Positions 43,301 to 60,742 of a stretch of DNA of 64,000 nt are shown one piece after another. Both the position numbers and the translations under genes were made by a program. A model generated the notes under the pieces. That model was not told the origin of the DNA, ran no database searches, and saw nothing but the letters and a program-made list of their open reading frames with translations. The stretch comes from an uncultured Methanosarcinales archaeon (GTDB lineage Archaea; Nanobdellota; Nanobdellia; Woesearchaeales; JAGVZT01), in assembly GCA_964354685.1 (NCBI GenBank), contig CAYHAM010000006.1:9523-73522 (forward strand), given 5' to 3'. The first letter of the stretch is position 1, and each line of letters starts with the position of its first letter.

Positions 43301-43949
43301 GTCCTGATACAGCTTCTTTAACAACAAAACTGGTAGAATCAATAACAACACCATTAAACCTTGCTAAAATTGTGTAATTACCAACATCTTTTGGAACAAA
43401 AATCATAATTCTATCTGGTTGACCCAAAAACTCATACTCCTTTCCCTCAAACTCCACTATAATCCTTTCTCCAGCCACTATACCTCCAACATGTTGTATA
43501 ACCACATTCTCTCCCAAAGAATAAACCATTTTGTCAGTTTTTATGATTCTTTTACTTGTCACTATCTTCTCTTCTTCCCCTTTCCCTTCTTTCACTATTT
43601 CAAAGCTCACATCATCAATCAAATCCAAAGTAACATGGTTCACTAGCTTTATTGTATAACTGCCTTCTTTTCTTGGTATAAACTCAATACACTTTTCCAA
43701 ATTACCCATGTACTGATAAACATCTTCTTCCACAATCACAAAAAGAGACAAATCCCCAAAATCATCTACGCCAATACAAACATTAACAGAATCTCCTAGA
43801 GCATAACTTGTTTTATCAACACTTAGTATCCCTCTTGGCTGAAAGAATTCTTCTTCAAAACCCTTGATGCTTATTATTTGGAGTATAAACAACATCATAA
43901 TTGACACTACAAAAATCCATTTTTCTTTCCTAACCATCTCTTCTATCAT
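34341..43949 (-). CDS. Giant secreted adhesin-like glycoprotein (3202 aa): N-terminal AIDP...DPGYAE domain, MG2-like domain, jelly-roll domains, ~38-Cys region, Ig repeats, DUF2341-like domain, CARDB, C-terminal subunit-like domain
   Basis: ORF track. Signal peptide and no C-terminal TM helix; ends YYGNASG...YDYEIRVP...FYIELK. ATGA overlap with the 5598-aa gene. Confidence 0.93.
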   Translation of the reverse strand: MIEEMVRKEKWIFVVSIMMLFILQIISIKGFEEEFFQPRGILSVDKTSYALGDSVNVCIGVDDFGDLSLFVIVEEDVYQYMGNLEKCIEFIPRKEGSYTIKLVNHVTLDLIDDVSFEIVKEGKGEEEKIVTSKRIIKTDKMVYSLGENVVIQHVGGIVAGERIIVEFEGKEYEFLGQPDRIMIFVPKDVGNYTILARFNGVVIDSTSFVVKEAVSGQVIEEEIKEEGIEVQIEKKIEGKISKFDIKSVAGRNIRAEGLFYNRKTGGSFKSIENLTHGLYDAEIIPEETPIKKIEFKDLEIKKDNIDLGLAAVSKEIPSVKNKVWIQVYAIDPTRLNFTSGVVSVVAKGEELYKCEDWNFEAEVCDGEWKKVMDIIPGQEYSFTITKEDPGYAETGVASINTKRSIYHPGEVAEIIIVVLDKDGHLVKDASVDLMITNPTNFSTWLSTKQNTIIETQRGIYETNYSLTNTEGNYSMVVYATGSNVNNTMFSYFTVKEFYEFDILRQTPVTTDPWMGAFTSSIKIVSYVDEVSFDFSESLPLNFTVLDNGGAVESLADNRKILSWSDLSNNSVVSYSARPPFVSPELYKIGKAMVYYNGGIFTEFRYWYLAVDPTFLGIMFEDFTNDFLNASTNTECPTSAGCTQNIPWGEFNNCSDAYDADSFDMCINNYGVVGYSLLMQEMDGFNWGGGLIYKFDPSKYDNINVRGYHYAASLDASEFCRIWVNDSNSTATIYECANGAACDHARADTTPPTPAGYTFFNVNLSSLSGINLSENISIHIGGTADGRADWCFWDSINITGFANPPNVTSLDYPGNNTIVMSLPIDFNFTVTDSHDIVLANCTLWANFNGTWLPNATVYNVANNTKTKIAVSVKDGTYWWNIQCFDQTGLSDWYDVNYTVTVDAAPIEKTVTAVGEDTESPWTTVQRSPIVNLTLNKNGNCRMSGSDESYADMSDNTNCSGNGTTNISCAWSGSQFPINETYLYVACNSTNGWADNTTTNVNIAVDILCDVHTDCPDNQYCNILQDCGNDELTGYPCSGKAYGDGNDDEVCGGGADTGKCINDTSYIYTGWYCSGDADDCVYNNTGYTYDVNYRLCNTTNDYRSCDSSNLWGVWVYCADQNQGANLSASTSTHTGYNCSYYAIDQSCSSGDQDSGNFGCTGSSTDCGDYVYLEGGSCGSVAADCDVGCEASCDVDNDTTPSVVDNICYYDKACNDSCAWVQNSEDAPEFCIDDYDGGACGYDDRTNPNETQTCYWSRQCLDTFGANLSSSGVLREDYCDYCNATSNQSGDYSPAPTAPCSSECTDSGTIYYDSGVTYADRSDDCANGTTTILNDTLQIGDVWDGNNPAQCNDTECDNDCGAFLDGTCQAGSCVCSDNYGPSIEVVNPEDDAWSTSTTVTFYYSVNDSGSGVENCSLIIGGVISQTNYTIIKEQTLNFTEDLDNSTTTNFYAPADSYSGDWANNPEEADEAPDNVVAWDETDNGNELFTANFSGLPSSGAINNVYLALRSNFSAAGIGNDELTLKYSLDNGTTWLNLDGTSYNGSSIANQSSSLRNDYYPITAYLDWDDLSKIYLGVEGLQVGLPDNEIVSIDAIWLRVEYSTVYFNWSIRCYDNSSNYNMNESETRTIGVDTTDPQLSNPNIDNNTFDVNDYVCLNITVTDTYSGVDKVLANILNPGQPAINITLYDNETSSCDSQNGDNVYSTEYLLQFSGQYNWTIAYANDSAANLASLDIGLTWNVTAAGNLSINMTYPTSDIEVNESSETTNYTFEMNCSVRCEPGALNCTDVVLFVQYKDSSWQDITTSTIDLINDEDSFICGNLTIGGDACNRTFNITSGQDSGNNVFGIRCKVTSNNSATVFSGDVNLTINDHPFANWIYPANNTWLGFSVVLNGSASYDSDGSISNYLFQLDDNADFTSPMTICDSADANCTFNTSTQEQCANNTLDCYLMLTVTDDNGLKNNNTIIVGFDTAGPVSILDKPQNYTNLTVNSYTVNASVIDNEIGNISGVVFEFRENNTATWKNACNDTDGVPFECLWNFTDYGDSSSYQVRVRANDTIGNWGDYNTNYNITIDRTAPSIKLEAPADNEYFVENVTFYYNVSDLTSDIRNCSLVINGSINQTNFSVQEDQIQNFSLYNLDEGAYNWSINCTDMLGNKNGSEFRNVYIESTGPTTTLDRPPNLGDISGSTYMVNASVVDIGIGNISVVRFEYRTGPAASWNLACVDDDGNAPYNCSWDISSLADGDSYQFLAFANDTLGNVGNNNTHTNIKIDNNGPSISLISPSPGAEDADGNVYFLFSVVDVASGITNCSLIIGGTINNTMYAPMPEDQTLQFNVTNMTNGGYYWNITCFDDFDNSFHQNTSETRLLTVNIQYIMHVNVSNNKAKYEMGNELADVANITTNTTDATHDPLDTNVTLDIILGNSTVPWWNISWQRRKPIFLSETENRERVNETIGVSVTGLNGNISSCVNEIRVIETNSSKEVPVNVTGGDNSTYCEILFIGSVSANAINENRYFVYYNNSQATQPSYSWPNNLYPYSILYDNFEVGTNFRMYNGSCPTNGSYECIDSDPYDGFDACVESESSTSYGVCSSTDMNTSGLRGFESTGGIERHTTSTGDGLFKFVNATPCGGRVCVAMNLSYYQAAASMDSGEGSAVFVNDSDATLRLISDCLNDEACEIGTTAGMGTRAEFVMQDLCIVSGVSCSEALTIRFTSSNVKADYGTSDWFGWDAVNITGYGRVTTGVSSSVGSLSVWINKSSGQTGSDGLWSYSWNVSGKPTGNYTAVSLGTKTLYKNTYNHSFFELTYDEASPSIQLNTPPNGSEANSSVVFTYIVNDTHSSIANCSLIIDGVVDDTHYPPILEDTINPFYPRIPQGGWHNWSVNCTDYYGNENSSLTWQIWIRPPDLTLQSTDITFSDYSAVEGENITIFATIYNIGGSDAYNITVQFFDGDWDNGSQINVNVTIGNLTDPSGNNSNKTVNVTWTPMIGAHYIYVVVDPPIGTNGTIFELYENNNYANTTYYMPSWHVYYGNASGKVVLSTVENLSEIAWNSSSGGNIFVVETGADVSWTSLQAIGINTSNLTANNDFAEIDNAMNMSTANDSVYKLYTNNGVPKLKISFVIYGVNITNVSIANSTNTSNFITGILWDYSDPNNGEYNGTQDLVFITKVNVQSQGKYGVYDYEIRVPARLREYKESIYNSVSFYIELK

Positions 43950-46900
43950 TTTATCTCAACATAAAATGTCACACTGTTTTGGGTATTTGGTTGTATATAT
44001 CCTCTTAACATAGCAGGAACCCTAATCTCAAAATCATAAACCCCATACATACCTGTTTTATTCTCATTAACCTTTGTGATAAACACAACATCTTGGGTAC
44101 CATTATATTCTCCATTGTTCGGATCATTGTAATCCCATAAAATTCCAGTAACAAAGTTTGATGTGTTTGTTGAGTTAACAATTGCAACATTGTTGATTGT
44201 GTTGCCATAAGCAACCCAGCCCATTGATAATCTCACACCCCCATTCTCAGTCCATGTCGTGTTTATTGAATCAGGATTCTGAGTCATGTTCATAGCAGTA
44301 TCTGCCTCATCAAAGTCATCCATCTGCAGGCCATTGATTGTATCCCTTGATACTGCCTGTAAACTATCCCACTTGACTATGCTATCAGAATCAACAACAT
44401 AGATGTTACTATTTGTATAATTACTAACATTCCAATCAAACAACGACATGTTTGTTGTGTCATAGAGCTGTAACAATCCTGTAATATTACCAATCACTAT
44501 CTCATATGAGCCAACAATGATTATATTATAAGCAAGGTTGTTAGACTCATTTGCCTCAACAATTGAACCATTTGTTGCCAAAGGCGGATCAACCACAACA
44601 TAGATGTTTGTGGACCCCATCTTGACAATATATGTAGTATTTACAGTTGCATTTGTCCCTAGAGGTAAGCTGTTAATTGTCTTGTTCCCGTTTATTTGAT
44701 TGTCACTACCTGGATAACCTTCAAAGAATTGCACTGTTATATTAGCAGCGTCCCCATTACCAATATTGTAAATTGTTGCATTGATTGTTACATTTTGACC
44801 TTCACTAAATGAGGTTTGATTGAACACAATATCTGAATTATTCAACGTAAGATCAGGCACCTCAATAAAGTAAGACCTTGTTTCACTTGTGTTCCAATTT
44901 CCTGCATTATCCCAACAAGTAACATTCCAATAATGCCATCCAGGACCCTGATCAGTTGCAATTGTTGAAACTTCAGTGTTGTTCAATGCACTGAAGTTTG
45001 CCCTATAAACAGAACCATCAATAGTCAAATTACATGTAAGATTATCATCAAGATTGTCAATTACAGTAAAGTTTAATTCAACAGAGGTAGATGAACTGTT
45101 GTGACCCTCCTCTGGATAAGTTAAATTAATAGAAGGCTTTGTAATATCAACATAAATTGTTATTGGTGTTGAATTTCTAATATTATTAACATTATCAAAT
45201 GCCTCGAGTATAATCTCATGCGATCCTTCCCCAACACCCACTAAATTTGTTGAGTTTGTACTACCATTGGTAGCAGTACCATTCACATTCTTTACTCCGT
45301 CAACATAGAATGTATAGTTTAAAACCTGATCAAGATTATCAGTTATATTGAAATAAATTGTTGGAGTAGTGGTATTAAACCATGTGCCATTAGCAGTTTC
45401 AATGTATGGATATGGTGCAATAATATCAACATACAAAGTGCGATTACTCGTAATTGTATACATATGTTGCGATGTATTATCATAACACTCAACAGCCCAA
45501 CTATAGCTTCCATTTAAATAATACACTGTGAAGTTGTTCATTGCATTGTTAATTATCTCTGTATTATTCTTTGTATCATTTATTTGTCCATCTAGTAACA
45601 AACTACAGTTCTCAATTCCAGTATCATCACTCACATTAAAATAGAAAGTCTGGTTCTCAACATTAGTCCAATTATTATCCGCTGGGCTGACCAATGTTAT
45701 ATTTGGAGCTATATACACAAAGAAATGTTTGGTCTCACTAGTGTTAATATTGGTGGCATTATCCCAACAACTCACATTCCAATAATAAGTTGTCTCATTC
45801 AACCAAGAAACTGTTGTATTGATCTCAGAGCCATTATTAGCAGCAAAATTCTCTCTGATTACACCATTATTCAAAGTGAGATTACACCTCATTTCATTAT
45901 CCATATTATCAGTAACTGTGAAATTCAAGTCAATTATTGTGTTTGTGTAATTCAATCCATTAGATGGATAAACCAAATTAATTGAGGGATTTATTTTATC
46001 AACCCTCAACAACCAGGTACTGCTATTACCCTCTGCACCGAACACGTCAGTACAATTAACACTCCAGTTATAGAATTTTGTGGCAATGTTCACAACACTA
46101 AAGTTATTCATTGCATTGTTAATTATCTCTGAGCTGTTCTTTGTGTCATTGATTACCCCATTCAATATCAAGGAACAATTTCTAATACCAGTAGTATCGT
46201 TCACTATAAAGTAGAATGTCTGATTCTCTGCATTACTCCATGAACCATTAGGAGGATTAACCAATGTAACATTTGGTGGAACAGCAAGATTAAATGTTCT
46301 TGTTTCACTGGTATTAATATTGCTAGCATTATCCCAACAACTCACATTCCAATAATAAGAACCCTCAACACTTCCAGTGTATGTTGTTTTAATCTCTGTG
46401 TTGTTATCAGCAACAAAATTCTCCCTATACACAGAACCATTCACAGTCAAGTTACACCTCAACTCATCATCCATATTATCAATGACAGTGAAATTCAAAT
46501 CAAGTGTGAATGATGTAGAATTATAACTCTCTTGTGGCCATGTCAAATTAATACTTGGTAAGATCCTATCAAGGTTTAGTCTCCAAGTTGTGCTATTACC
46601 TCTGGTATTAAAGTCGTCATAACACTCAACAGACCAATTGTAGAGGTTTGATTTTATATTATACACAGTGAAATTGTTTTTGGCATTATTTGTTACCTCA
46701 CTGCTATTTTTTGTAACATTAACCAGCCCATTGAGTATCAATGAGCAATTGTTAATACCAGTATCATCGCTCACATTGAAGTAAAAGGTCTGATTCTCAG
46801 CATTGCTCCAACTATTGTCTGGTGGACTGTCAAGGATTACAATAGGTGGAATAACAACATTAAATGATCTTGTTTCACTGGTATTAATATTGCTAGCATT

Positions 46901-49900
46901 GTCCCAACATGTAACATTCCAATAGTATGTGCCTTCACCAGTAGCAGTATAGGTTGTATTAATCTCTGAATTATTAGCAGCAGCAAAATTCTCTCTATAC
47001 ACAGAGCCATTAACAGTTAAATTACATCTCATCTCATCATCCATATTATCAATTACACTGAAATTAAGATCAAGGGTGAGCGAACTAGAATTATAACCGT
47101 TTACAGGCAGAGTTAGGTTAATGAATGGTTTTATCCTATCAACCTTTAACAACCACGTTGTGCTATTGCCTTCAACATACAAGGAGGTGTTATCAGTGCA
47201 ATTCACACTCCAGTTGTAATACCCTGATTTGATATCATAAACAGTAAAATTATTTACAGCATTGTTTGTTATCTCACTACTGTTCCTTGTATCATTAATT
47301 TGCCCATTAAATATCAAGCTGCAATTCTCAATTCCAGTATCATCACTCACATTGAAATAGAAAGTTATATTCTCACTATTATTCCAAGTGTCATGTGCAG
47401 GAACTATTAACTCCACAACCGGAGCCAGATACACATTAAAACTCCTTGTTTCACTTATATTCCAGTTTGTTGCATTATCTACGCAAGTGACATTCCAATA
47501 ATACGTTGTCTCATTCAAACCACTAATAGTTGTATTAATCTCAGTATCAACATATGCAACAATATTTTGCCTATAAACATCACCATTTAGGGTTAGATTA
47601 CAAATAAGCTCACTATCCAAATTATCACTAACAGAAAAGTTCAACTCAATTGTTGTTGAGGTTGTATTAACTCCTTGTGGTGGGTAAGTTAGATTAATAG
47701 AAGGTTTGGTTGTATCAATATAAATTATTATTGGTGTTGAGTTCACAACATGCCCTGCCTCATCACTTGCCTCCAAAACAAGCTCATAAACACCATCTGT
47801 TTTTGAGCTTAGGTTAATTGAAGTTGTAGTGCCATTGTTCACACTGCCATTGGCCTCATGGCTCCCATTTACATATAGAGTATAATTTAAAATGTCATCT
47901 AAATTGTCAGTTATATTAAACAATATTTCAGGAGTTGTGTCATTAAACCATGTTTGATTAGCAGTCTCAAAAATAGGAGATGGATTGCTCAAGTCTATAT
48001 TTACCTTTAGAGATGTTGAATTCTTACTCCTACTCAAATTATCAGTAGCCTGCACAATTATATAATGCACACCCTCACTCAATGTAACATTCAACAGCTT
48101 GCTCACATTATCACTAGCACTACCATTCTGGCCATTAAGGATACCATCAACAAATATGCTGTAATTGATAGATCCATTGGTAAAGTCCTGAAGTGTAAAG
48201 TTTATCTCAACTGTTTCATTATCTTGCCAAGAGTCATTCTGAGGGCTATTTATTGTAGAAATAAGCACAGATATGTTTGTTGTGGCATTGTTGTTGCTCT
48301 CATTAAGCTCAGCTATATTATCATCAGGATCAACAACAACCCAAATTGTATGATAACCAGCAGTGATAATCCATGAAATATTAAAAGTGACTGTTGCATT
48401 ATAACCAACATCTTTTGTATTATTTCCTATAAATGTTCCACTTCCAGGTAAGCCATCCCAAAACTCAACCAATACATTACTTGCATCAATCCCCCCAATA
48501 TTGCTAACATTGGCAAATATTGTAATATTCTCATTTAGATCAGGATTACTATTGTTAAAAGAGATCATAGAATTGTTGATAAACAAATCAGGCTGATTTA
48601 TTGTGAAATTGCCAGTAAAGCTTGTGTTGCTATTACCCAAATCATCAACACATGATACACTCCAGTTGTGAGCACCATCTGCTAATCCATTAACCTCTAC
48701 TAGGAAATTAGTACCACTCGTATTTGTAATGTTTGTAACATTTACAGCACTATCAATAGTGAGGTTACAAGTGATGTTTATTCCAGGTGCATCTGTTGGC
48801 GTCCAGTTGAATGTTATATTGTTATAATTGATTGCTTGTCCTTCACCAGGATAATTAAGTACTATCGATGGTCCAAGAGTATCTATTGTAAAGTTCTCAT
48901 AAGGTGCTGTGTAAGGATTTAGATCAGGAGCTTCATCTATACATTCTACACTCCAATTGTAATACCCATCCGAAATGTTTGTAAGATCAAAGTAATTGGG
49001 TTCATTCCTCTCTATACTTGAATCGCTATTATTGAACACCCCATTAATATATAATGAACAATTATTAAATCCAAAATAGTCATACGGAGTATAATTAAAT
49101 GTCATATCTTGACTAGTTGTTCTATAATTGTCTATAGGGAAATTCAAAGTAACATTTGGAGGAGCTTCAACTGTGAAGTTTATCAAAATGTATGAATTAG
49201 TATTATTTGCATGGTCAATACAGGTTACTGACCAATTGTAATTGCCATCATATAACTCACTATACCTTGTAACTGTGCTTCCATTTGAAACACTAACATT
49301 TTCCCATTCCACACTATCTACAACAGTAATATTACATATTAACTCATCATCTAAATTATCTGTGACCGAAAAACTGAAAGTTACATTATTCCAAGTAACA
49401 GTTTCGTTATTGTATGGAGTGATTATCGTGATGTTTGGGGAAGTAGTATCTATTATCAATTGCCTTTGAGGCGATCCTGTTCCCTCCAGTTCATAAATAT
49501 CAGTAGCATTTATAGTCCAATAATACAAACCATCTTCTGAAAAATTGAATAAAAATGAATTTTTCTCACCATTCTCAAGACTCGTGTCATTCTCAGTTTT
49601 AACATTATTTATTATGAGAGACGCATTTCCCAGACCATCAGCATCAACAGGGATATAAGTAAAATTTACATTTTCACGATAATCCAAAATGGTCCCATTA
49701 TCAGGACTCACCAGAGCTATATAAGGGGGATTGTATATTGTAAAATTCCTTGTCTCACTTGTATTGGTATTGTAAGCATCATCCCAACAGGTTAAATTCC
49801 ACCAATATACACCATCCAAATTTATTGTTATAGTCTGGTTAATAACAGAGCCATTAATTGCGGGGATGTTTGATTCATTAACCTCACCATCTAGTGTCAA

Positions 49901-52900
49901 GTTACAATAGAGTAAATTAGAAACATCATCTGTCACTGTAAAATTGAATTTTATTAATGGTCCGAAAACAGATGCATTAGGTAGTGGTGAGTGTAATGTT
50001 ATAGTTGGTTCAGTACTATCAATAACAAATCTTCTAACAGGAGACGCAAGTGTACTTAAACCTGAGAGATCAGTACAGTTAACTGTCCAATTGTAAAAGC
50101 CTGGATTGAGTCCAATCAGAGTAAAATTATTTTGATAACCATTGTTGATTGATGAGTTGGTTTGGTTTATTTCATTATCCAATATAAGATCACAATTATT
50201 AAATCCGGTATTATCTGTAGGAGTGTAATATAGAGTAATATCTCCTAAACTCTGTGAGTGGTTGTCCTCAGGGGAATTTAGTTCAACACTTGGGGGAGAA
50301 CTAACATTTATGCTTCTAGTCTCACTTGTGTTCCAATTTCCAGCATCATCAACACAAGTTATGTTCCAATAACTTACCCCATCAGGGATATTATTTATAG
50401 GTCTTGATGTTAGTGACCCGTTGTTAGCGTTGAAATTCTCATCATACACACCACCATTAATAGTAATATTACACACTAATATCTTATCAGCATCAAGATT
50501 GTCAGTGACTGTAAAGTTAAAATAAATAGTACTTTGATTAGTTGAATGATTGTCTTCAGGCGCATATAAAACTATGCTTGGTTTTGTGAAATCAATAAAA
50601 AACCATCTTTCAGTAGCCTGTACAGTTAAATTACTGATATCAGTCACATTTACAGTCCAGTTATATCTCCCCTCCACTAGATTTCCTACTGTGAATGTAC
50701 TAATTTCACCATTCCCAACCTCTGAGCTACTATCATTCCAAACACTATTTATATATAAATCAGCCTTTGTAACATCGTTGTTGTCAGTTGCATTGTATTG
50801 TAAATCTATTGATGTTGAATTCTGTGAGTAATTATCAGGTGTCACAAGTGTCACATTTGGTGGAAGATCAATAATGCTGAAGTTTATTGTCTTACTGGTA
50901 TTAAAGTTGCCAGCATTATCAACACAAGCAACATTCCAAGAATGATTCCCTTGTTCTAAACTTCCTATTGGACGAGATGTTAATGAAGCATTATTTGAAC
51001 TAAAATTGGCGTCCTCAACAGTCGAATCTATTGTTATGTTACAAATTAAGACAGAATCAAGATTATCAAAAACTGTAAAGTTGAATAATATTGTACCAAC
51101 GTAGAAAGTTGAATTCTCATCTGGTGCTGCTAAATTAATCGATGGTTTTGTTGTATCAACTGTTAATGTCCTATTAGTATTACCCCAATCGTAATTATCA
51201 TCATCATCATACGCTAGACAGTTCCAAATATAAATCCCCTCTTGTAAAGTTCTAGTGAAAGTAGTACTATTTGATGTCCCACCTATGTTGTTGGTACCAT
51301 TTGCTCTAAAGGTACCATTAAAATTTGCATAAAGAGTCATATTAAATAATCCATTATTATCTGTGGCAGAACAATTAAATACAACTGATGGATTATTTGT
51401 TGCGGAATTATTATTTGGGCTTACTAATGTAACCACTGGTGGAACACTTGAAGTATCTTCTATTGTAATATATATATGATCTGTTTCATTGTGACCAACA
51501 TATATAGGATATTGTGTTGAATTGAAAATAACATAGAATTCATGTGTTGTACCAATACCACCTGTGGCATTCACATCCCATGTTATTTGACAGCTTCTGC
51601 CATCAACCATTCCACCAAGACAACTATCATCTGATTTATTTTGTGGATTGGAATCAATTGTATAAAATGGTTCGGTTCCATTTATTGTAGATACCATCCC
51701 ACTCTTAATCAGATACTCCCAACCAACTGTTAGGTTTGCATAATCAATAATCATAATTATGTCATCATCTGCATCAGTATCACCACAAACACTTGTTCCA
51801 AATACTCTCCACTTAATTGTAATTATATTATCATCAGCATAACTGCTATTGATTGTTTTTCTGTATCTGAAAGTATTATAATCATCAGCATCTCCCCATC
51901 CAGGAGCAGAGGCATCTGTCCCAAGGTTTATTTCGCTGCCTGCACCACACTCGCTTCCAACAGTTGAAACACAATCCAATTTTTCATACCCATCTGGCCC
52001 CAAAATCCACATATCAAAGCTTCCTCCACCAGTTCCGTCATCAAATTCAGGATTATCACCATTGTCACAATTATTGCTTGTTAAAACCTCATCACCATGC
52101 CAGCACCCACCCCAAGTGATTGTCACATTCTTCAAGTATTCAGGATTTAAATCGCTAACATTGAATGATAATGTGGCATTTAATTCACAATCATAAGGCT
52201 CAGCATTAGTAAGATTTTGAAATCCTGTTTCCCATGAATTAGATGAAGTGCATGTTCCACCTGTACAATCTGCAACAAGGGTATCTGAATAATCACCAGC
52301 ATCTGCTTGAGTATATGTCCCATCTGAGTAAGTTGATAGGCTATCTGTATAAGCAGAATAGTAGTTTAATGGGTCAACTGCAACCAACCAAGGCCTTGCT
52401 TCTTCAAAAAACTGACCATCATGCAAAATATAAGATTCTAGTTTATACCTATTTGGAGAGATCTTGGGAATCTTCGCCTGATAACTCACTGTTGAGTTGC
52501 CTCTAAGGTCAGACCAAATGATTTGTGTTTCCTTATCTGAATACCATACGTAAGCATTATTAGCCTCAATGATCTCCCACTCTGAAGGAATGGTCTCAAC
52601 AAAACTGTATTGATTGGTTCCTTCCAATGAATTAATGTGTATTGTTGATTCAAAGTCACTTTCCCAGGGATCTATAGCAATTGGAGTTTCTCTTATAATA
52701 TCAAAAACATAATCCTCTTTCACCTCAAATAAGGTGTACAGCACATCTTTAACGCTACTATTTATTGTAGTAATTTCCAAACCATAAACTCCTTCAATTT
52801 GTAAAGGACCATATACAAATTCATAAAGCCCAGGTCTTAGCTCTTTGAATTGAGATGAATAAACTCTTTCTTTTGTTCCATCTGGCTTTGTTATTGTTAA

Positions 52901-55900
52901 TTGTAGGTTCTCATTAGAAACAAATTCTCCTTTCTTATCAAGAACTATGGAGATCAATTCAGCGCTTTCCCCCAGTCTATAGATTGGCTTTTTAGAATTT
53001 AAGGTAATTAAACCATTAGGATATCTGGAGTTTCCTACCTTCTTATTTGTTTGAACATCGTTAATTATAACATCTCCTACTATATCCTCTACTCTTTTCT
53101 CATATACTGGTTCTGTTATTGGAGAATAGGATTTTTGCATTGATATTGGATACTGATGAGGGTCTAATATTGCCTCAACATCCCCACATTCTCCTCCAAC
53201 ACAGCTAACCTGGGCTGTGAAACTAAAGAACTCATCCTTTTCAACAGAAATATCACCATCTGGATCAACAAGAGAAACCACTAAAGTACCCCAAGGAATA
53301 GTCCAGTTTGTATAGTCAATGTCTATGCTTGATTCATTATCCATACACAATGCATCAATTCTAAATTCACCTGAATCATTTATTTTAGTGGTTTTATTAA
53401 TAATCCACCAATCACTATTATTTGTAAAAGTTGTATTTGTATAAAATAAGTTAGAGTCAGGAATATTTGTCAAATTAACTGTTACATTTACAACCGTGAA
53501 ATAATCGCTAGTACAATTTACTCTTATTGCAGTGAGGCTGTCATTGAATGACAAACCTGAACATGCACCCCATGAGCCATTATTAATTTGGCATTGTATC
53601 TCATTAATCTCTGGTGGCTTTGTTGCAACAATCGTTACATTAGATGAATTTACTTGAGAACCATGGCCATCATTATCAAATGGAATTACACCACACCACC
53701 ATGTTTCTCCTAGAGATGTATTTTCACTGCTTAAAATTGAATAAGTTTGAACTCCATTTGAAACATTCATTAACTGAGAATATATTAAAACACTACTATT
53801 ATACCAGCTTATATTGGCTGAAAGTGTATCAAAATAATTTGCATCAATTATAGTAAAATTACAATAGAGATCTTCTTCTGGTAAAGGATACAAAGGAGTT
53901 AATAATATATATGAAACATTTGGCAGAACATTTTGAATTATGGTTATATTAATTCTGCTAGTAGTTGCTGAAGAAACATAGCTTGAATAATTCTCAGCAT
54001 CATAGGTTACAAAAAACTCCCATGGAATTCCAGTAAGACCAGTGGCATTAACTTGCCAAGTTGTATTACAACTTGAACCACTCTTCATATTTGCTAGACA
54101 GGAATTGTTTTGATAAAACATAGGGTTTGCTGTAACTGTGTAAAAAGGATCTCCTGAATTCATTGGTATTATACCCTTGTTTTGAGGAATTTCCTGTTCC
54201 AATTCTACTGTTGGTTGTGGGTAAACATACTTTCTGATTTCTATTGTTCTTACTCTGTGTTCGTTTGTGCTTCCTCCTGTTCTTCCTCCTAAAAAGAAAT
54301 AGTTACCTGCTGTACTCTGCGGACTTGAATCTGTCCCATTCACTCTTAAAACCCCATCATAATAGATCAATGCATTCGCTCTAGTACCATTATTGTAAAA
54401 ATATACTGAAAGATTGTGCCATTGTGAATCATCCAATGCAGCAACAGGGTTCCACTCAGCAATAGAAGGACCATTATCAGTAGTACTTTTTGTAAATGCT
54501 ACTCTTTCATCTGGATCTGTCCATTCATCAACAGTAAAGTGATAACCATCATTTACAATATCTTCTCTGCCTGAACTTACAGATGTATCGTGTACACCTA
54601 TCCATGTAGAATCAGCTCCTGTTCCACCGCCTGCCCAGGTTTCATATCTACCGTAAAAACCAGGTCCTGGATTTTTTAGCCAGTATAGATAACCCAACTG
54701 ATCATTAGCAACAGGAGTAAGCCTTACCCCTACTGTTGAATCTACATACGCTGCAGAACCAGTAAGGCTCCCGCTTGGAGGACCTGACATATCCTCGTAT
54801 AAAAACAGTGTTTCTGTTCCATTGCTCTGGCTTTGTGCTGTAGAATTACCATAATAAACATAAATTGAGGCATTGCCATAGGCGCTGAGTGAGTACTCCA
54901 CCCATATTAAAGTTGAACTTGTATTGCAACCATATTCAACCCAATAATCCAATTCATTATTTGAACTGTCCACGAATCTTACATCTCCACAGTCACTCCT
55001 CATTTTACCAGCAGAAATAAGAGATTGCGTATTCAAGGTTACATTGAATTGATAATCTGTAAGTATATTGTTTGATTTCTCTGTAAGATTAATCTTTCTT
55101 CTGTAATCCCAGGATGTGTTCCACCAATTCTCAGGGTCAAGTGTTGCACTTACATATCCACACTCTCCCCCAGTACAATTTACTCTTGCCGTAAAATTAA
55201 AGAATTTGTTCTGAGTAACGTTTATATCTTCGTTAGGGTTAATTAATTCTACGACCAAACTTCCCCAAGGAACTGTCCAATTGGATGATCCTGAACCGGA
55301 AGTGCTGGAGTTATCATAACATGTTACTGAGAGGTTAAATGTTCCTGAGTCAGTTATTGTAATGTCAGTATTATTGAAAACAAAATAACCTGTTGAATTA
55401 TCATTGGTATAGTTATTGAAAAAAGTATATGAATCCTCAACATTGATTAATGTAAACGTCGCATTTACAACATAACCATCAGGATCTGTGCAATCAGCCC
55501 TTACTGCTTTTAAACTGTCTCCATATAAAATATTCTCACATTGAGTCCAGGTTGAGCCATCTTCATAACACCAAATCTGGTTGACCACAGGAGGTTGGGA
55601 TGCCAGAATTTGAATAGCAGAAGAGTTAACCTGTGTTCCATATTCTATTTGATCATATGGTGTAACACCACAATGCCAGTACTCACCACTGGAAGTGTTT
55701 CCTGAATTTAAGATAGCATTAGTTTTAACTCCACTAGTTACACTAACAACTTCTGAATAAGATAAAGCACTTCCCTTATACCAACTTACATTAGCGGTTA
55801 ATGTATCCAGAGCACTGGAATCTGATACTGTAAATGTACAATTTAAATCATCACTTGGACTTGGTAGTAATGGATCTATTGAAACTGAATCAACTGTTGG

Positions 55901-58900
55901 TGCAATGTTGTTGATTATTGTAATGTTTACTGCAGATGTATTAACAGCGCTAACATTTGCAGAGTAATTCATCGATGCATATGTAACAAAGAACTCCCAA
56001 GTTGTATTAGCACTACCTGTCGCGTTGACTTGCCAGGTTGTATCACAATTGTTACCATCTGTCATATTAGCTAAACAATATCTATAAGAAGAGTTCATAG
56101 GATTATCAGAAGTTGTGTAGAATGGAGTTCCAGAATTCAAAGGGACTACTCCTTTACCAGAATTATTTTCTTCACTTCCTAAAGTATAACTCGGAGCACT
56201 ACTCATTGCTTTATATACTCTTAAATCATCGTATTCTGCTTTTGGAGTTCCTGTATTTGTGTTTGAAGCAGTTAATCCATAATAACCTGAATTTCTTGAA
56301 CCACCTGAAGCCACATTTGCATAATTCCATGAACTTGGCTCAGCAGTTATTGCTAACCAAACTTTATTCCAAGTATTTTGCCCTATGATCATAAATTTAT
56401 GATAATACCAAGTGTTTTGATTCCACGCATAACTTCCTTCCTGGAACCAAGAAACCCCATCATTTAACAAATCTAATTCTCCTGAAGCCCCGTCATTATT
56501 ATGTAATAATGAACAATAACCTCTTCCTGCTCCTCCTGAACCATCCATTCTTAAAGAAGGGCCGAACCTATAAGCATCGCCATCAGTCCATTGAGTAATT
56601 TGCATTTTAACAACAATAACACCATTAGTAAAAGAAGGACTTGAACCTAAATAATCTATTAATAATTTATTTGGGTCTCCAGAACCTCCTGAAGCAACTA
56701 ACTTATTATTAGTTATGTTCCATGTAGCTCCGCCAACACTACTATAATTAGCCTCTGTTGTAATATCTGGTTTGTCGGTTCTATTAAAATCATCCCAATA
56801 CATATAGACTAAATTATAATCATAAGTAGGAGTACTTGCACCAGAATTTCCATAATATAAAAAAACAGTATCTTTTTTCTGAGAAGCGCTTAAATCTGTT
56901 TTAAAATGAATTATTGTATTTGCAGTGTTATTTGTGTTAGGTTCAATATGATAAGCAATCTCAGTACCATTTTCTATTATTCTTAAATCACTCATATCAG
57001 CATTCATCTTACCTGCAGAGACCAAAGTCTGAGTATCAATAGAAACATTGGTTGTCCAATTACTAACTGCACTTCCAGAATTTTCTGTTATATTAATTTG
57101 CATCCTATAATCCCAATTTGAATTCCACCAGTTTGTAGGGTCAAGTGTCGCATTTACATCCCCGCACTCTCCACCACTACAAGTAACTCTTGCTGTGAAA
57201 TTAAAGAAACGATTTCTAGTAACATTAACATGAGTAGAAGGACTAATCAATTGAGCAGACAAATTACCATAAGGAATGCTCCAATTGATATCCTCTTCCA
57301 TTACAGGATTTTCCCTGCAAGTGATATGCAAGTTAAACAATCCAGAATCATATATTGTCATATCTGAAACATCATACTCCCAATACTCACTACTGTAATT
57401 AACCCTTAACCAAATAGCATCTATGCTTGCAACCTCATCATCAGGCAAACCAACTTGCATGCCCTCAACTCCTAAGTATATGTTGCTCAAATCACTCCAG
57501 CTAAGACTACCAGTGATCTGGTAATAATCATTTCTCAAACTACCACTCTGGTTTGCAACACTAGCACCATTATAAGCAGTTCCATCAAGATTCTTCCATG
57601 TTGTGCCACCATCTAGACTATATTTTAATGTTAGCTCATCATTACCTATAGCTGGATTAGAAAAGTTTGATCTTAGTGCTAAATAAACCTTGTTGATAGT
57701 ACCAGCCTCTGGTAACCCAACAAAATTATGAGTATATAACTCATTCCCATTATCAGTTTCGTCCCATGCAACTGCACTATCTGGCTGATTATCAGCCTCT
57801 TCAGGGCTATTTGCCCAATCACCACCATAAGAGTTTGCATACAGATTCAATTCTGAACCAGATTCATTTGTTAATGTAGCATTAAAGTACACTTTGTTAT
57901 CATCAACATTCTTAAGCATAAAAGAAACATTGCTTATTGACCCGCCAGAATTAGAAGTACAGTTTGTTCTCACACTATCAAGCGTATCCCCAAATGCAAT
58001 AGTTGTGCAATTAACCCATCCAACACCAGCTTTATAACAACTTGTGTTGCTGATTGTTGGTAGAACCTCAACAGTGATATTTGTGTGGGTGTTGTTATTA
58101 CCAATATTACCTATTGTGTCATTTGCAAAAGCCCTCACCTGATAAGAATTACCACTACTTAACCCAACCATGTTCCATGTGCATTCATACATTGGACCAG
58201 AATTGTCACTACATATAAACCCCCATGATGCAGTTGAATTTTTCCTATAATAGAAAGAAACAGTGTCTACATTGGATAATGCATCAGTAGCACTTGCATT
58301 TACAGTATAAGTGGCTGTTGAAATATTTGTGAAGTTCTGGGGTCTGTCAAGAGTGGTTGTTGGCCCTGTTCTATCAATTGTAATAGTATAATTGGTAGAA
58401 TACCAATCATCATTAGGAACAGTTGCATTATCCCAGCACCTTATGTTCCAAATATATTTGCCATCTGATGGATTGACTGTAATGTTTGTATTTGTGTTAT
58501 TTGTCACATTAAAAGCAGTACCCTGAATTGTCCAACCAGATATATTCATGTAAAGGCTGCAGTTCTGTATTGTATGATCATCCGTGGCTGTGAAGTTGAA
58601 ATTAACTGATGTTGAAGTGATATTTGCCCCATTAGATGGATAATTTAAAGATGTTACATTTGGTGCACTATCCCAACTACAACCACACAATGTGCAGTTA
58701 GTCTGGCCACTATGGCTTCCACAACTGCTTGGTGTTCCAGAACATTGATATACTCGTTTTATTATCAAAACCCCATCAACATGGCCATAATCACCAGCCT
58801 CAATATCGTCATTATCCCACTCAATTCTAAAACCATTATAGAAATACTGGGAATCTGTAATTGTATCTGTGTAATGCCCCCATGTGCCACCATCATTTAA

Positions 58901-60742
58901 TGTGCTTTGTTCATTCCAACTACTGCTACTATTAAGATAATCAATAGTAAATTCACTGTCACTGTTAACAGACTCATAATAATAGAAATCAATATAAATC
59001 GCATCTGCATCTGAGTAATCTCCAGTAGGCGTCATCAGCCAAGTGTTAATTCCACCACCAGAACCATCAAACCTTGCTGACCAACTTCCATTAGAGGCCC
59101 TTGCATTTGACCTGCTCCATTGAGTGTCATCTATCTCCCAATTGGTTGGAGGGAATGTGGCACCTTCAAATGACTCATTAACCATAGTTGTGTTAACAAG
59201 AACCCATGCACACCCACACGCCAAACAATCATTTTGATTATTGTGATTACTACAGTTGCTTGGAGTCCCTCCACAAAGACCAGCTTCATTATATGCATAC
59301 TTAGTATCATTCCCAAACTTGAATTCCAACGTATGTTTACCACATGTCAAAACCTTGCTTATTTCATACCCTGTTTCATCACAGCTGTAGTTAGAAATGA
59401 ACACACTGTTATTTATCCATTCATATTCCAAAACATTGTTTCCACATCTTGTTTCCAAAAACTTTAAGTCATTATCCTCATTCACATTGCTCCAAGTTGT
59501 GCCATTAAAAACAGTTATTGTCAAATCAGCCATGCCTGTTGTGTTAAACCTAACCTCCCAGTTGCCACCAACAGTAGGATAGCTCTGAACATCAATTATT
59601 GTGATATCTGTCTCAGCATAACCAGGATCATCGGGTGTTAATACAAACGAATACTCTTGCCCTGGCACAATATCCATCAACTTCTCCCATGTGCCTTCAC
59701 AAATCTGTTCTTCAAAGTTCCAATCCTTACACTTGTATAATTCATTACCCTCTGCAACTGCTGTAACAACTGCTCTTGAGAAATTTAGCTCAGTTGGATC
59801 TATTGCATAAATCCTTTGCACACCTTTACCTCTAAGTTCCGGAATATCTTTTTGGACCTCATCTATCTTCAGATTAATCCCTTCCTCTTCAATCAACAAC
59901 CCATCAAAACTTATACTCTTAACAATATTACTCTCAAAACCTAACTCAACATTTACAAAACCACCAACATCTTCAATAGAATTGATATTGTAATCAATGA
60001 ACTCTCCATCTCTTTTTATTAACTTCAAAGCTTGCTTTAGCTCTTCTGAAACATTAATCTGAGGTTCAACTGGTTCCTCTTTAAAAACAACCCAGAAAAT
60101 CTTTTCTATTACACTGTTGTCTTCAAGTGTTATCACAACCTTATACTCACCCACCTGCTTTGGTATGAAAACAATCTTCTCATTAAACTCCCCAAGGTAA
60201 TGTAAACTATTGTTCCCAAACCATATCACAAGACTTGAAACATTAACATTCAGCCTAATATACACCCCTTCTCCTAAATTGTAACTGATCTTATCTATGC
60301 TTATTACATCATTCGATAGATTATCACTCTCATCTAATTCAATCTCAACCTCTTGCTCACCTCCTTCATCACTGGCTATGTCAACAACATAAAAATTAGA
60401 GGCTGTTATTGTTCCATCCTCTTTATCAAGCAGCTTAACTGTATAATTACCAGGAACCTTTGGCTTAAACACAGTAACAGTTCTAACATTCCCCGCGTAC
60501 CTATAAACTTGATCTCCATGAATTATGAAAAGCTCTTTGCCTTCAATTGGTCCCAAAACATGTATGAAAACATCTTCACCAGTAGAATAGTATATCTTTT
60601 CAATAGACAATTTTTCTTGATTTGATTCAGATGCAATCCCACTTATTGAAGCATAACCGATTATTATAATACCTAAGATTAATATGATTAATAAAATCTC
60701 CAAGTTCTTATTCATGCCTTTAATACTCATCTCTTTTTTCAT
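43946..60742 (-). CDS. Giant secreted adhesin-like glycoprotein (5598 aa): N-terminal AIDP...DPGYAE and VQSYP.VGGNW domains, MAM-like domain, two DUF2341 plus ConA/L-lectin-like units, MG2-like domain, ~22 Ig repeats, two CARDB domains, C-terminal subunit-like domain
   Basis: ORF track. WWN..WDYR DUF2341-type starts; RLTP...QLG / GGGTGAD lectin-like motif; ends GNITG...YDFEIRVP...FYVEIK; no C-terminal TM helix. Confidence 0.93.
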   Translation of the reverse strand: MKKEMSIKGMNKNLEILLIILILGIIIIGYASISGIASESNQEKLSIEKIYYSTGEDVFIHVLGPIEGKELFIIHGDQVYRYAGNVRTVTVFKPKVPGNYTVKLLDKEDGTITASNFYVVDIASDEGGEQEVEIELDESDNLSNDVISIDKISYNLGEGVYIRLNVNVSSLVIWFGNNSLHYLGEFNEKIVFIPKQVGEYKVVITLEDNSVIEKIFWVVFKEEPVEPQINVSEELKQALKLIKRDGEFIDYNINSIEDVGGFVNVELGFESNIVKSISFDGLLIEEEGINLKIDEVQKDIPELRGKGVQRIYAIDPTELNFSRAVVTAVAEGNELYKCKDWNFEEQICEGTWEKLMDIVPGQEYSFVLTPDDPGYAETDITIIDVQSYPTVGGNWEVRFNTTGMADLTITVFNGTTWSNVNEDNDLKFLETRCGNNVLEYEWINNSVFISNYSCDETGYEISKVLTCGKHTLEFKFGNDTKYAYNEAGLCGGTPSNCSNHNNQNDCLACGCAWVLVNTTMVNESFEGATFPPTNWEIDDTQWSRSNARASNGSWSARFDGSGGGINTWLMTPTGDYSDADAIYIDFYYYESVNSDSEFTIDYLNSSSSWNEQSTLNDGGTWGHYTDTITDSQYFYNGFRIEWDNDDIEAGDYGHVDGVLIIKRVYQCSGTPSSCGSHSGQTNCTLCGCSWDSAPNVTSLNYPSNGANITSTSVNFNFTATDDHTIQNCSLYMNISGWTIQGTAFNVTNNTNTNITVNPSDGKYIWNIRCWDNATVPNDDWYSTNYTITIDRTGPTTTLDRPQNFTNISTATYTVNASATDALSNVDTVSFYYRKNSTASWGFICSDNSGPMYECTWNMVGLSSGNSYQVRAFANDTIGNIGNNNTHTNITVEVLPTISNTSCYKAGVGWVNCTTIAFGDTLDSVRTNCTSNSGGSISNVSFMLKNVDDNKVYFNATLTNESGSELNLYANSYGGDWANSPEEADNQPDSAVAWDETDNGNELYTHNFVGLPEAGTINKVYLALRSNFSNPAIGNDELTLKYSLDGGTTWKNLDGTAYNGASVANQSGSLRNDYYQITGSLSWSDLSNIYLGVEGMQVGLPDDEVASIDAIWLRVNYSSEYWEYDVSDMTIYDSGLFNLHITCRENPVMEEDINWSIPYGNLSAQLISPSTHVNVTRNRFFNFTARVTCSGGECGDVNATLDPTNWWNSNWDYRMQINITENSGSAVSNWTTNVSIDTQTLVSAGKMNADMSDLRIIENGTEIAYHIEPNTNNTANTIIHFKTDLSASQKKDTVFLYYGNSGASTPTYDYNLVYMYWDDFNRTDKPDITTEANYSSVGGATWNITNNKLVASGGSGDPNKLLIDYLGSSPSFTNGVIVVKMQITQWTDGDAYRFGPSLRMDGSGGAGRGYCSLLHNNDGASGELDLLNDGVSWFQEGSYAWNQNTWYYHKFMIIGQNTWNKVWLAITAEPSSWNYANVASGGSRNSGYYGLTASNTNTGTPKAEYDDLRVYKAMSSAPSYTLGSEENNSGKGVVPLNSGTPFYTTSDNPMNSSYRYCLANMTDGNNCDTTWQVNATGSANTTWEFFVTYASMNYSANVSAVNTSAVNITIINNIAPTVDSVSIDPLLPSPSDDLNCTFTVSDSSALDTLTANVSWYKGSALSYSEVVSVTSGVKTNAILNSGNTSSGEYWHCGVTPYDQIEYGTQVNSSAIQILASQPPVVNQIWCYEDGSTWTQCENILYGDSLKAVRADCTDPDGYVVNATFTLINVEDSYTFFNNYTNDNSTGYFVFNNTDITITDSGTFNLSVTCYDNSSTSGSGSSNWTVPWGSLVVELINPNEDINVTQNKFFNFTARVNCTGGECGYVSATLDPENWWNTSWDYRRKINLTEKSNNILTDYQFNVTLNTQSLISAGKMRSDCGDVRFVDSSNNELDYWVEYGCNTSSTLIWVEYSLSAYGNASIYVYYGNSTAQSQSNGTETLFLYEDMSGPPSGSLTGSAAYVDSTVGVRLTPVANDQLGYLYWLKNPGPGFYGRYETWAGGGTGADSTWIGVHDTSVSSGREDIVNDGYHFTVDEWTDPDERVAFTKSTTDNGPSIAEWNPVAALDDSQWHNLSVYFYNNGTRANALIYYDGVLRVNGTDSSPQSTAGNYFFLGGRTGGSTNEHRVRTIEIRKYVYPQPTVELEQEIPQNKGIIPMNSGDPFYTVTANPMFYQNNSCLANMKSGSSCNTTWQVNATGLTGIPWEFFVTYDAENYSSYVSSATTSRINITIIQNVLPNVSYILLTPLYPLPEEDLYCNFTIIDANYFDTLSANISWYNSSVLIYSQLMNVSNGVQTYSILSSENTSLGETWWCGVIPFDNDGHGSQVNSSNVTIVATKPPEINEIQCQINNGSWGACSGLSFNDSLTAIRVNCTSDYFTVVNVTVNLTNIPDSNLFYTNTTFTNNSDWWIINKTTKINDSGEFRIDALCMDNESSIDIDYTNWTIPWGTLVVSLVDPDGDISVEKDEFFSFTAQVSCVGGECGDVEAILDPHQYPISMQKSYSPITEPVYEKRVEDIVGDVIINDVQTNKKVGNSRYPNGLITLNSKKPIYRLGESAELISIVLDKKGEFVSNENLQLTITKPDGTKERVYSSQFKELRPGLYEFVYGPLQIEGVYGLEITTINSSVKDVLYTLFEVKEDYVFDIIRETPIAIDPWESDFESTIHINSLEGTNQYSFVETIPSEWEIIEANNAYVWYSDKETQIIWSDLRGNSTVSYQAKIPKISPNRYKLESYILHDGQFFEEARPWLVAVDPLNYYSAYTDSLSTYSDGTYTQADAGDYSDTLVADCTGGTCTSSNSWETGFQNLTNAEPYDCELNATLSFNVSDLNPEYLKNVTITWGGCWHGDEVLTSNNCDNGDNPEFDDGTGGGSFDMWILGPDGYEKLDCVSTVGSECGAGSEINLGTDASAPGWGDADDYNTFRYRKTINSSYADDNIITIKWRVFGTSVCGDTDADDDIIMIIDYANLTVGWEYLIKSGMVSTINGTEPFYTIDSNPQNKSDDSCLGGMVDGRSCQITWDVNATGGIGTTHEFYVIFNSTQYPIYVGHNETDHIYITIEDTSSVPPVVTLVSPNNNSATNNPSVVFNCSATDNNGLFNMTLYANFNGTFRANGTNNIGGTSNSTTFTRTLQEGIYIWNCLAYDDDDNYDWGNTNRTLTVDTTKPSINLAAPDENSTFYVGTILFNFTVFDNLDSVLICNITIDSTVEDANFSSNNASLTSRPIGSLEQGNHSWNVACVDNAGNFNTSKTINFSIIDLPPNVTLVTPDNYSQNSTSIDLQYNATDNNDVTKADLYINSVWNDSSSEVGNGEISTFTVGNLVEGRYNWTVNVTDISNLTVQATERWFFIDFTKPSIVLYAPEDNHSTNQSTIYFNFTVTDNLDADKILVCNITINGGVYDENFNANNGSLTSRPINNIPDGVSYWNITCVDDAGNWNTSETRSINVSSPPSVELNSPEDNHSQSLGDITLYYTPTDNTGFNNCDLILDNEINQTNSSINNGYQNNFTLIGLNPGFYNWTVNCTDLSGLSTLASPVRRFVIDSTEPTITLHSPLPNASVFGPLIKFNFTVTDDVSNLLYCNLTLDGEVNESNIPAINGSVINQTITINLDGVYWWNLTCWDDAYNTNTSETRNFTIYNPPYIALVSPDNGTILDYRENVNFTYIPVDADGLGNASLIINNVKTENDTSLENGEKNSFLFNFSEDGLYYWTINATDIYELEGTGSPQRQLIIDTTSPNITIITPYNNETVTWNNVTFSFSVTDNLDDELICNITVVDSVEWENVSVSNGSTVTRYSELYDGNYNWSVTCIDHANNTNSYILINFTVEAPPNVTLNFPIDNYRTTSQDMTFNYTPYDYFGFNNCSLYINGVFNNSDSSIERNEPNYFDLTNISDGYYNWSVECIDEAPDLNPYTAPYENFTIDTLGPSIVLNYPGEGQAINYNNITFNWTPTDAPGINITCNLTIDSAVNVTNITNTSGTNFLVEVNGLADGAHNWSVSCVDDLGNSNTSFTGNFTINQPDLFINNSMISFNNSNPDLNENITIFANVSNIGGIDASNVLVEFWDGLPGSGTFIGNNTKDVGYNATVTFNISWIITAGYHTIWVVVDPDDNIAELNESNNNATTNISVLISTINSPQNDSWQDNETVEINFTLQDFTNGSINYSIFVDGILNGQNGSASDNVSKLLNVTLSEGVHYIIVQATDNLSRSKNSTSLKVNIDLSNPSPIFETANQTWFNDTTPEILFNITDNLDDILNYTLYVNGSHEANGSVNNGTTTSINLSSKTDGVYELVLEASDEAGHVVNSTPIIIYIDTTKPSINLTYPPQGVNTTSTTIELNFSVSDNLDSELICNLTLNGDVYRQNIVAYVDTEINTTISGLNETTYYWNVTCVDNATNWNISETRSFNVYLAPVVELIVPAHDTWNNSENITFYFNVSDDTGIENCSLIFNGQINDTRNSSEITNNAVNNFTVYDIKSGYYNWSVNCTDNTSLYVEGNSTTWLLKVDRIKPFINLTLPVNGYNSSSLTLDLNFSVIDNMDDEMRCNLTVNGSVYRENFAAANNSEINTTYTATGEGTYYWNVTCWDNASNINTSETRSFNVVIPPIVILDSPPDNSWSNAENQTFYFNVSDDTGINNCSLILNGLVNVTKNSSEVTNNAKNNFTVYNIKSNLYNWSVECYDDFNTRGNSTTWRLNLDRILPSINLTWPQESYNSTSFTLDLNFTVIDNMDDELRCNLTVNGSVYRENFVADNNTEIKTTYTGSVEGSYYWNVSCWDNASNINTSETRTFNLAVPPNVTLVNPPNGSWSNAENQTFYFIVNDTTGIRNCSLILNGVINDTKNSSEIINNAMNNFSVVNIATKFYNWSVNCTDVFGAEGNSSTWLLRVDKINPSINLVYPSNGLNYTNTIIDLNFTVTDNMDNEMRCNLTLNNGVIRENFAANNGSEINTTVSWLNETTYYWNVSCWDNATNINTSETKHFFVYIAPNITLVSPADNNWTNVENQTFYFNVSDDTGIENCSLLLDGQINDTKNNTEIINNAMNNFTVYYLNGSYSWAVECYDNTSQHMYTITSNRTLYVDIIAPYPYIETANGTWFNTTTPTIYFNITDNLDQVLNYTFYVDGVKNVNGTATNGSTNSTNLVGVGEGSHEIILEAFDNVNNIRNSTPITIYVDITKPSINLTYPEEGHNSSSTSVELNFTVIDNLDDNLTCNLTIDGSVYRANFSALNNTEVSTIATDQGPGWHYWNVTCWDNAGNWNTSETRSYFIEVPDLTLNNSDIVFNQTSFSEGQNVTINATIYNIGNGDAANITVQFFEGYPGSDNQINGNKTINSLPLGTNATVNTTYIVKMGSTNIYVVVDPPLATNGSIVEANESNNLAYNIIIVGSYEIVIGNITGLLQLYDTTNMSLFDWNVSNYTNSNIYVVDSDSIVKWDSLQAVSRDTINGLQMDDFDEADTAMNMTQNPDSINTTWTENGGVRLSMGWVAYGNTINNVAIVNSTNTSNFVTGILWDYNDPNNGEYNGTQDVVFITKVNENKTGMYGVYDFEIRVPAMLRGYIQPNTQNSVTFYVEIK

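Follow-up and report, generated by a model that had tools for sequence, protein, structure and literature searches.

The 64,000-nucleotide stretch analysed here (hereafter the window), which belongs to contig CAYHAM010000006.1 of genome assembly GCA_964354685.1 from an uncultured Woesearchaeota-type (DPANN) archaeon, encodes a giant putative surface protein of 5598 amino acids (aa) whose stalk very probably carries three split-domain display modules, each with a cargo that is nested in one and the same macroglobulin (MG)/immunoglobulin (Ig)-like host fold, has been replaced over evolution, and presumably binds ligands. A single minus-strand open reading frame (ORF), 43946..60742, contains the entire split-domain region. 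At its N-terminus, the protein has a hydrophobic segment (signal or anchor), which is followed by an Ig-like stalk, the three split-domain modules, a long array of Ig-like and CARDB domains, and a conserved C-terminal domain. The only Pfam families recognised in it are Big_13, Big_7, CARDB, two copies of DUF2341, and a weak MG2. Throughout, coordinates are window positions, all module features are on the minus strand, and residue numbers are those of the 5598-aa protein unless another protein is named.

The host domain is about 135 aa long and is present in three copies in the giant ORF, each of which is broken after the motif ...C.GGECG.V.A.LDP by an in-frame insert of 326, 317, and 485 aa in modules 1, 2, and 3, respectively. 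The last residue of the N-half motif falls at aa 1202, 1870, and 2528, and the host domain continues at aa 1529, 2188, and 3014 with the C-half (G.(V/I)P..G.PFYT..NP..C..M..G..C..TW.VNATG..EFFV), whose PFYT...NP motif starts at aa 1540, 2199, and 3025. The protein contains 92 cysteines, and a pair is conserved in each host half (C.GGEC; C..M..G..C). In module 1, the N-half (57137..57292; aa 1151-1202) terminates with ...CSGGECGDVNATLDP, the cargo spans 56159..57136, and the C-half (55907..56158; aa 1529-1612) reads GKGVVPLNSGTPFYTT...WEFFVTY...NITII. Module 2 includes an N-half at 55133..55288 (aa 1819-1870), a cargo at 54182..55132, and a C-half at 53930..54181 (aa 2188-2271), while the corresponding parts of module 3 are at 53159..53314 (aa 2477-2528), 51704..53158, and 51452..51703 (aa 3014-3097). 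Hidden Markov models (HMMs) built from the three copies matched each half at E-values of 1e-31 to 1e-43, and when applied to the whole genome (1.28 Mb in 13 contigs) they retrieved one further locus only, on contig C5, bringing the total number of host copies to four. Together, these E-values and the single other genomic locus place the repetition of the host halves far beyond chance. The motifs and HMMs therefore confirm that the same host domain is opened three times at the LDP site, as the initial annotation had claimed with coordinates that were right to within a few bases.

We identified 30 giant homologues of 3283-7039 aa in metagenome-assembled archaea labelled Woesearchaeota, Nanoarchaeia, or Nanobdellota; 29 giant homologues are annotated as DUF2341/CARDB proteins of Woesearchaeota/Nanobdellota. 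The organisation of the host halves was then surveyed by local HMMs in a census of 170 proteins, drawn from 29 giant homologues and the 150 top-ranking representatives matched by a C-half profile; at E<=0.001, this profile had 712 matches in a set of 1.84 billion representative proteins. The halves follow a strict alternation (NC 252, CN 163, CC 15, NN 7), and lone halves essentially never occur in complete giant proteins. An insert of 40 to ~900 aa is present at the fixed point in 237 of the 252 N-to-C pairs (94%). Uninterrupted pairs, defined by a gap of less than 40 aa between the halves, are rare (15/252). These include natural copies with only 0-7 residues between the halves, such as that of P0044 (...GGECGYVNATLDPEKGAISTTKGDTPFYTT), and uninterrupted host domains are also found at loci L017, L020, L031, and L036.

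When the halves were modelled as one joined domain, a check proposed by the initial annotation along with the search for uninterrupted versions, a single all-beta domain was obtained. The AlphaFold2 (AF2) query was the uninterrupted copy of P0018 (aa 3799-3935, 137 residues), and the other rows of the alignment were interrupted modules, including the three of the window, with their inserts in a 656-column gap. The resulting beta-sandwich has a predicted local distance difference test score (pLDDT) of 93.5 and a predicted template modelling score (pTM) of 0.86, and its sole internal dip in confidence, at residues 51-60, corresponds to the insertion loop. The strands ahead of the exit are at residues 10-16, 21-24, 28-37, and 45-51, and the chain exits after residue ~51 of 137. 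In Foldseek searches with this model, 129-137 of the 137 residues were aligned to single MG domains, spanning both halves, and the top 15 matches were all C3c, C3b, C4, cobra venom factor (CVF), alpha-2-macroglobulin (A2M), or A2ML1 (E 7e-5 to 3e-4, query-normalised TM-score (TMq) 0.49-0.60). Concerning the window itself, the model of module 2 (aa 1820-2289; pLDDT 78.9, pTM 0.63) displays host halves at pLDDT 83-95 (91-95 for the N-half and 83-95 for the C-half) with a strand pattern identical to that of the uninterrupted P0018 model, and a cargo made of separate DUF2341 and L-type-lectin folds. The two halves are thus predicted to form one fold. No meaningful Pfam match was obtained with either joined or uninterrupted host sequences at E up to 10, and the host profile (A2) gave 0 matches against PDB sequences at E up to 1. 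According to these models, the host domain is an uncatalogued sequence family with a predicted macroglobulin/Ig-like fold, the match being at the level of the fold only.

The first two cargoes both start with a DUF2341 domain (PF10102) above the Pfam cut-off, in agreement with the initial annotation (92.4 bits for both copies together, whole-protein E 2.5e-26; insert 1 alone E 7.9e-9, 36.3 bits against a cut-off of 23.4). In module 1, DUF2341 (aa 1249-1323; 56774-56998) is followed by a beta-rich domain, a candidate for the ConA-like fold named in the initial annotation, and no PDB match to this insert was found by sequence. In module 2, DUF2341 (aa 1917-1987; 54782-54994) is followed by an L-type-lectin-like domain (~aa 1984-2191) that Foldseek matched to ERGIC-53, Emp47p, VIP36, the legume-lectin domain of M. 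jannaschii (7elv), and peanut lectin, at E ~2e-5 and target-normalised TM-scores (TMt) of 0.5-0.6, in a part of the model with moderate pLDDT (45-92). The predicted fold of this second domain is that of L-type (legume) lectins, consistent with the legume-lectin-like part that had been noted there. The cargo of module 3 includes a weak MG2-like region (aa 2584-2644; 52811-52993), more beta-rich domains, and a putative jelly-roll-like part at its C-terminal end. The match to Pfam MG2 (PF01835) is sub-threshold (E 0.0013, 19.5 bits against a cut-off of 32.8), and the best PDB match by sequence is the bacterial alpha-2-macroglobulin YfhM, with a weak E of 0.15. Orthologues with this cargo class carry precomputed PF01835 matches, and the class is also present in P0003, P0004, and P0005.

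BLAST clustering of the 237 inserts of at least 40 aa in the 170 proteins of the census gave 89 clusters, and the insert lengths peak at 160-240 and 280-360 aa. The inserts include DUF2341-lectin units, jelly rolls, glycine-rich domains (Gly_rich_2, ALK_LTK_GRD), and three protease families: the papain family (Peptidase_C1; E 7e-56), subtilases (S8; E 6e-36), and a gingipain type that includes its propeptide (C25; E 4e-60). Whole protease zymogens of this C1, S8, and C25 set are nested in the host loop of P0062 (aa 1779-2106, papain C1), P0041 (aa 306-944), and P0059 (aa 98-764), and many cargo representatives have no Pfam match whatsoever. The clearest case of a swap is given by P0003 and P0005, which we compared by MAFFT global alignment, as BLASTP returns a single high-scoring segment pair. 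These two proteins are 76% identical overall and drop from ~80% to ~20% identity exactly over the cargo of the second module, which is a DUF2341-lectin in one and a glycine-rich insert in the other; the immediate flanks of the swapped cargo share 57-67% identity, and regions farther out 75-95%. A tree of joined host halves from 91 modules requires 31 changes of cargo state, against a minimum of 21 and 52 in label shuffles, while position within the protein (last versus not last) is strongly conserved, with 6 changes against 24.5 in shuffles. At least nine pairs of supported sister host domains carry unrelated cargo (e.g. P0011 m1/m2, P0018 m1/m2, P0006 m2/m3, P0016 m1/P0009 m3), and the 'last-position' host clade, to which module 3 of the window and its C-half belong, contains four cargo classes. 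All three cargoes of the window are shared with its nearest homologue, P0004, indicating that nothing recent happened in this lineage. Taken together, these sequence comparisons show that the LDP loop is a family-wide acceptor site for very diverse cargo that has been repeatedly replaced in orthologous host domains. The expectation that orthologues would differ in cargo at this site is therefore borne out by the clusters, the P0003/P0005 drop, and the sister pairs. The idea of interchangeable binding modules holds for the interchange and has to be widened for the binding, as the occurrence of three protease families indicates that the cargo is not restricted to binding modules.

Based on these data, we propose that the chain would leave the host sandwich at the conserved LDP, once about four N-terminal strands are in place, fold into a complete cargo of one to several domains, and return at (K)G.(I/V)P..G.PFYT, where the host sandwich would be completed. 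The spacing from a C-half to the next N-half has a median of 203 aa, which equals two ~100-aa Ig-like extender domains, and two such extenders would separate successive modules. With cargo nested in the host and extenders between modules, the stalk would be continuous and the cargo would project sideways. The two DUF2341-lectin units and the MG2/jelly-roll unit of the window may bind glycans, or other ligands, on the surface of a host cell or substrate, and cargo turnover by ordinary recombination may retune what the cell attaches to or degrades. The interpretation given by the initial annotation is supported in its structural and evolutionary parts, while adhesion, host recognition, and the swapping of host specificity are functions that we infer.

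A number of points weigh against this proposal. The modules are in the middle of the protein (aa 1150-3100 of 5598), with no obvious placement at a distal tip, and the model of module 2 is only moderately confident overall (pLDDT 78.9, pTM 0.63). Contact between the N- and C-halves in the interrupted modules of the window is predicted from the uninterrupted homologue, the matching secondary structure, and the high pLDDT, and ligand binding by the cargo is suggested by similarity to lectins at the level of the predicted fold. Moreover, some C-halves occur in chains without an N-half (the divided copy described below, in this and one other genome), and some of the long inserts of the census may hide host halves overlooked by the HMMs. 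The fact that 94% of the copies are interrupted, the C-half in a protein devoid of an N-half at the C5 locus and its syntenic counterpart, and the reliance on models for N/C contact in the window would all be compatible with two separate small domains flanking a variable centre, with no single host fold and no nesting. We nevertheless regard this as very improbable, in view of the natural copies with 0-7 residues between the halves, the single domain modelled by AF2 at pLDDT 93.5, the Foldseek alignments to single MG domains that cover both halves, and the strict N-then-C order with essentially no lone half in complete giants; in addition, a ~50-aa piece of three to four strands is unlikely to be stable alone. 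It is also possible that the architecture is real and that the protein is not an adhesin, being instead an envelope or S-layer-like structural or enzymatic scaffold whose cargo processes or organises the cell's own glycosylated envelope or degrades external polymers. The protease zymogens (C1, S8, C25) among the cargo of relatives and the position of the modules in mid-protein rather than at an end would fit such a role, as would the 348 N-X-S/T sequons of the giant protein, a 2.7-fold enrichment over the 130 expected from composition, which suggests that it is probably densely N-glycosylated. However, DPANN archaea with small genomes are generally dependent on a host, and lectin folds together with a tandem Ig-like stalk match fibrillar adhesins. 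Large DUF2341 proteins have also been proposed as pilus-associated adhesins in methanococci/archaea (PMC4858521). We therefore consider a scaffold role unlikely, if less so than separate domains.

Concerning the way cargo is exchanged, dozens of unrelated cargoes at one site, a clean cargo swap between close orthologues, and conserved flanks that could in principle guide recombination may evoke cassettes of active programmed variation, through site-specific recombination, through silent donor copies of the kind that pilins use for antigenic variation, or through an intein-like or mobile element targeting LDP. We see no sign of an active mechanism of this kind and consider it highly unlikely. 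The host halves of the window share 50-69% DNA identity, with a longest exact run of 12 nt, and no direct or inverted repeats were found flanking the window inserts; the single notable repeat (154 nt, 74% identity) reflects paralogy between modules 1 and 2. The genome contains the four host copies only and no silent cassette array, and the more diverged flanks (57-67%) of the cargo swapped between P0003 and P0005 point to old recombination rather than precise excision. No recombinase was detected by Pfam among the three ORFs upstream and the giant ORF downstream, the remaining window not being scanned. An intein or mobile-element origin was rejected, as the insert ends vary freely, with none of the conserved terminal residues of inteins, and their sequences are those of recognisable extracellular domains. 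The 50-69% nucleotide identity and the lack of flanking repeats likewise led us to reject recent gene conversion or cassette recombination inside the gene. The low DNA identity of the host halves, the absence of flanking repeats, and the presence of only four copies argue that a permissive loop has undergone ordinary recombination and domain shuffling over a long period, and not programmed switching.

The nearest known counterpart is the split domain of adhesins of the repeats-in-toxin (RTX) type, and the archaeal architecture works in the same way while lying outside that family. In Gram-negative bacteria, RTX adhesins such as MpIBP, V. cholerae FrhA, and A. hydrophila AhLap use Ig-like 'split domains' that project ligand-binding domains, with extenders between units (PMC12077191; PMC10865825; see also Graham et al. 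2024 Proteins 92:933 on split domains of RTX adhesins, as cited in those papers). In both cases, an Ig-like beta-sandwich of the stalk is interrupted by a complete, sideways-budding domain and then completed, several units are present per protein with two extender domains in between (here together with a long tandem Ig-like array of Big_13, Big_7, and CARDB), and the cargo includes folds of lectins or carbohydrate-binding modules that differ between units and species. However, the organism is here an archaeon, and no HemolysinCabind or related Pfam match that would indicate RTX repeats, a type I secretion system signal, or a Gram-negative retention module is present in the 5598-aa protein. The archaeal host domain also belongs to a different, uncatalogued MG-like sequence family, and its chain exits after ~50 residues, or about four strands, whereas in AhLap it exits after the first strand (PMC12077191). 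Finally, at least 89 cargo clusters, whole protease zymogens among them, are accommodated by one conserved archaeal host family, and 94% of its copies are occupied.

By structure, the uninterrupted host domain is closest to the MG domains found in complement C3/C4/C5, cobra venom factor, and alpha-2-macroglobulins. However, the structural alignments show only 8-16% identity, no MG/A2M Pfam family or PDB chain is matched by sequence profile, and no thioester or bait-region domains were found here. The MG family is said, after work by Janssen et al. in 2005, to tolerate nesting, MG6 being reportedly interrupted by LNK/ANA or by the bait region, with CUB-TED placed between MG7 and MG8. In the tip proteins of Gram-positive pili, for example RrgA of S. 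pneumoniae, a vWA domain is inserted in stalk Ig-like domains, a similar placement of a binding domain. However, these are single cases with fixed cargo, isopeptide-stabilised CnaB/CnaA domains, and sortase assembly, none of which applies here. The DUF2341-LamG/lectin units of large surface proteins from archaea and the Candidate Phyla Radiation also resemble the first two inserts, which open with DUF2341, followed in insert 2 by a predicted lectin-type sandwich; unlike in those units, the cargo is here nested in another domain and is not a linear segment. We found no description of the host domain in the literature on DUF2341, DPANN giant proteins, and Woesearchaeota adhesins, and a survey of fibrillar adhesins (PMC8286594) is silent on nested domains and archaea.

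The device is of the already known split-domain type and rests on a new domain family. This defines an uncatalogued family as a dedicated acceptor site for nested domains, and would bring host-dependent DPANN archaea into the range of split-domain display, which has so far been reported from bacterial RTX adhesins. The LDP/PFYT junction, being fixed, provides a simple sequence rule to locate functional modules (lectins, jelly rolls, proteases) in otherwise unreadable giants, which would allow cargo turnover to be traced between lineages and bears on host recognition by tiny archaea. A natural scaffold that tolerates inserts of ~100 to 900 residues at one loop may also be of interest for protein engineering.

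The fourth host copy of the genome is located outside the window (contig C5:6375-14058) and is split between genes. A 1314-aa ORF terminates with the N-half (...ECGNINATLDP) plus 32 aa, while the C-half is carried by P0053, a protein of 587 aa that has a signal peptide of its own and, ahead of the C-half, a Cys-rich domain (a triple Cys-rich repeat). A gene coding for a tail-fibre-like secreted protein lies between the two parts. This gene order is conserved in a second Woesearchaeota genome (L038 + L015), with 38-52% amino-acid identity over the N-half region; in that genome, the first ORF stops inside the N-half and a gene for a YhcG-like PDDEXK nuclease is also inserted. Both parts are open frames in both genomes. 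The divided copy could be the result of an old gene fission. A more speculative and rather doubtful scenario is that the host halves reassemble by beta-sandwich complementation, and that separately encoded cargo-bearing proteins would in this way dock into the stalk protein. If true, such non-covalent plugging of cargo proteins into a stalk would represent a natural split-protein docking system.

Most loci with the host domain belong to DPANN archaea (Woesearchaeota, Nanoarchaeota, Nanohaloarchaea, Altiarchaeota, Iainarchaeum, Micrarchaeota), with a small number in bins assigned to Methanosarcinales, Bathyarchaeia, and other Euryarchaeota. Within the phylum, the distribution is patchy: the domain is present in 76 of 301 sampled genomes (64 of 225 genera), or about a quarter, and is missing from all three other genomes that were sampled in the family to which the window belongs. 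In the 76 genomes it is nearly always found in open frames of 1000-7600 aa. Non-DPANN bins account for most of the uninterrupted copies L017, L020, L031, and L036 (Euryarchaeota SCGC AAA252-I15, Methanobacteriota, Methanosarcinales, and a short contig binned as Pirellulales), which may represent either the ancestral state or misbinning.

At the other end of the giant protein, a C-terminal domain of ~120 aa (43946-44300, minus strand), with the pattern ...GILWD..D...YNGTQD..F.T......G..G.YDFE..VPA.LR.Y.....V.FY.E(I/L)K, is common to all giant homologues and is covered by no Pfam family; it could be an anchoring or tip domain. Immediately downstream, a second large ORF of 3202 aa (34341-43949, minus strand) overlaps the stop of the giant ORF by 4 nt. 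It contains no copy of the split host domain, and has matches to Big_7, Big_3_3, and CARDB together with a sub-threshold match to MG2.

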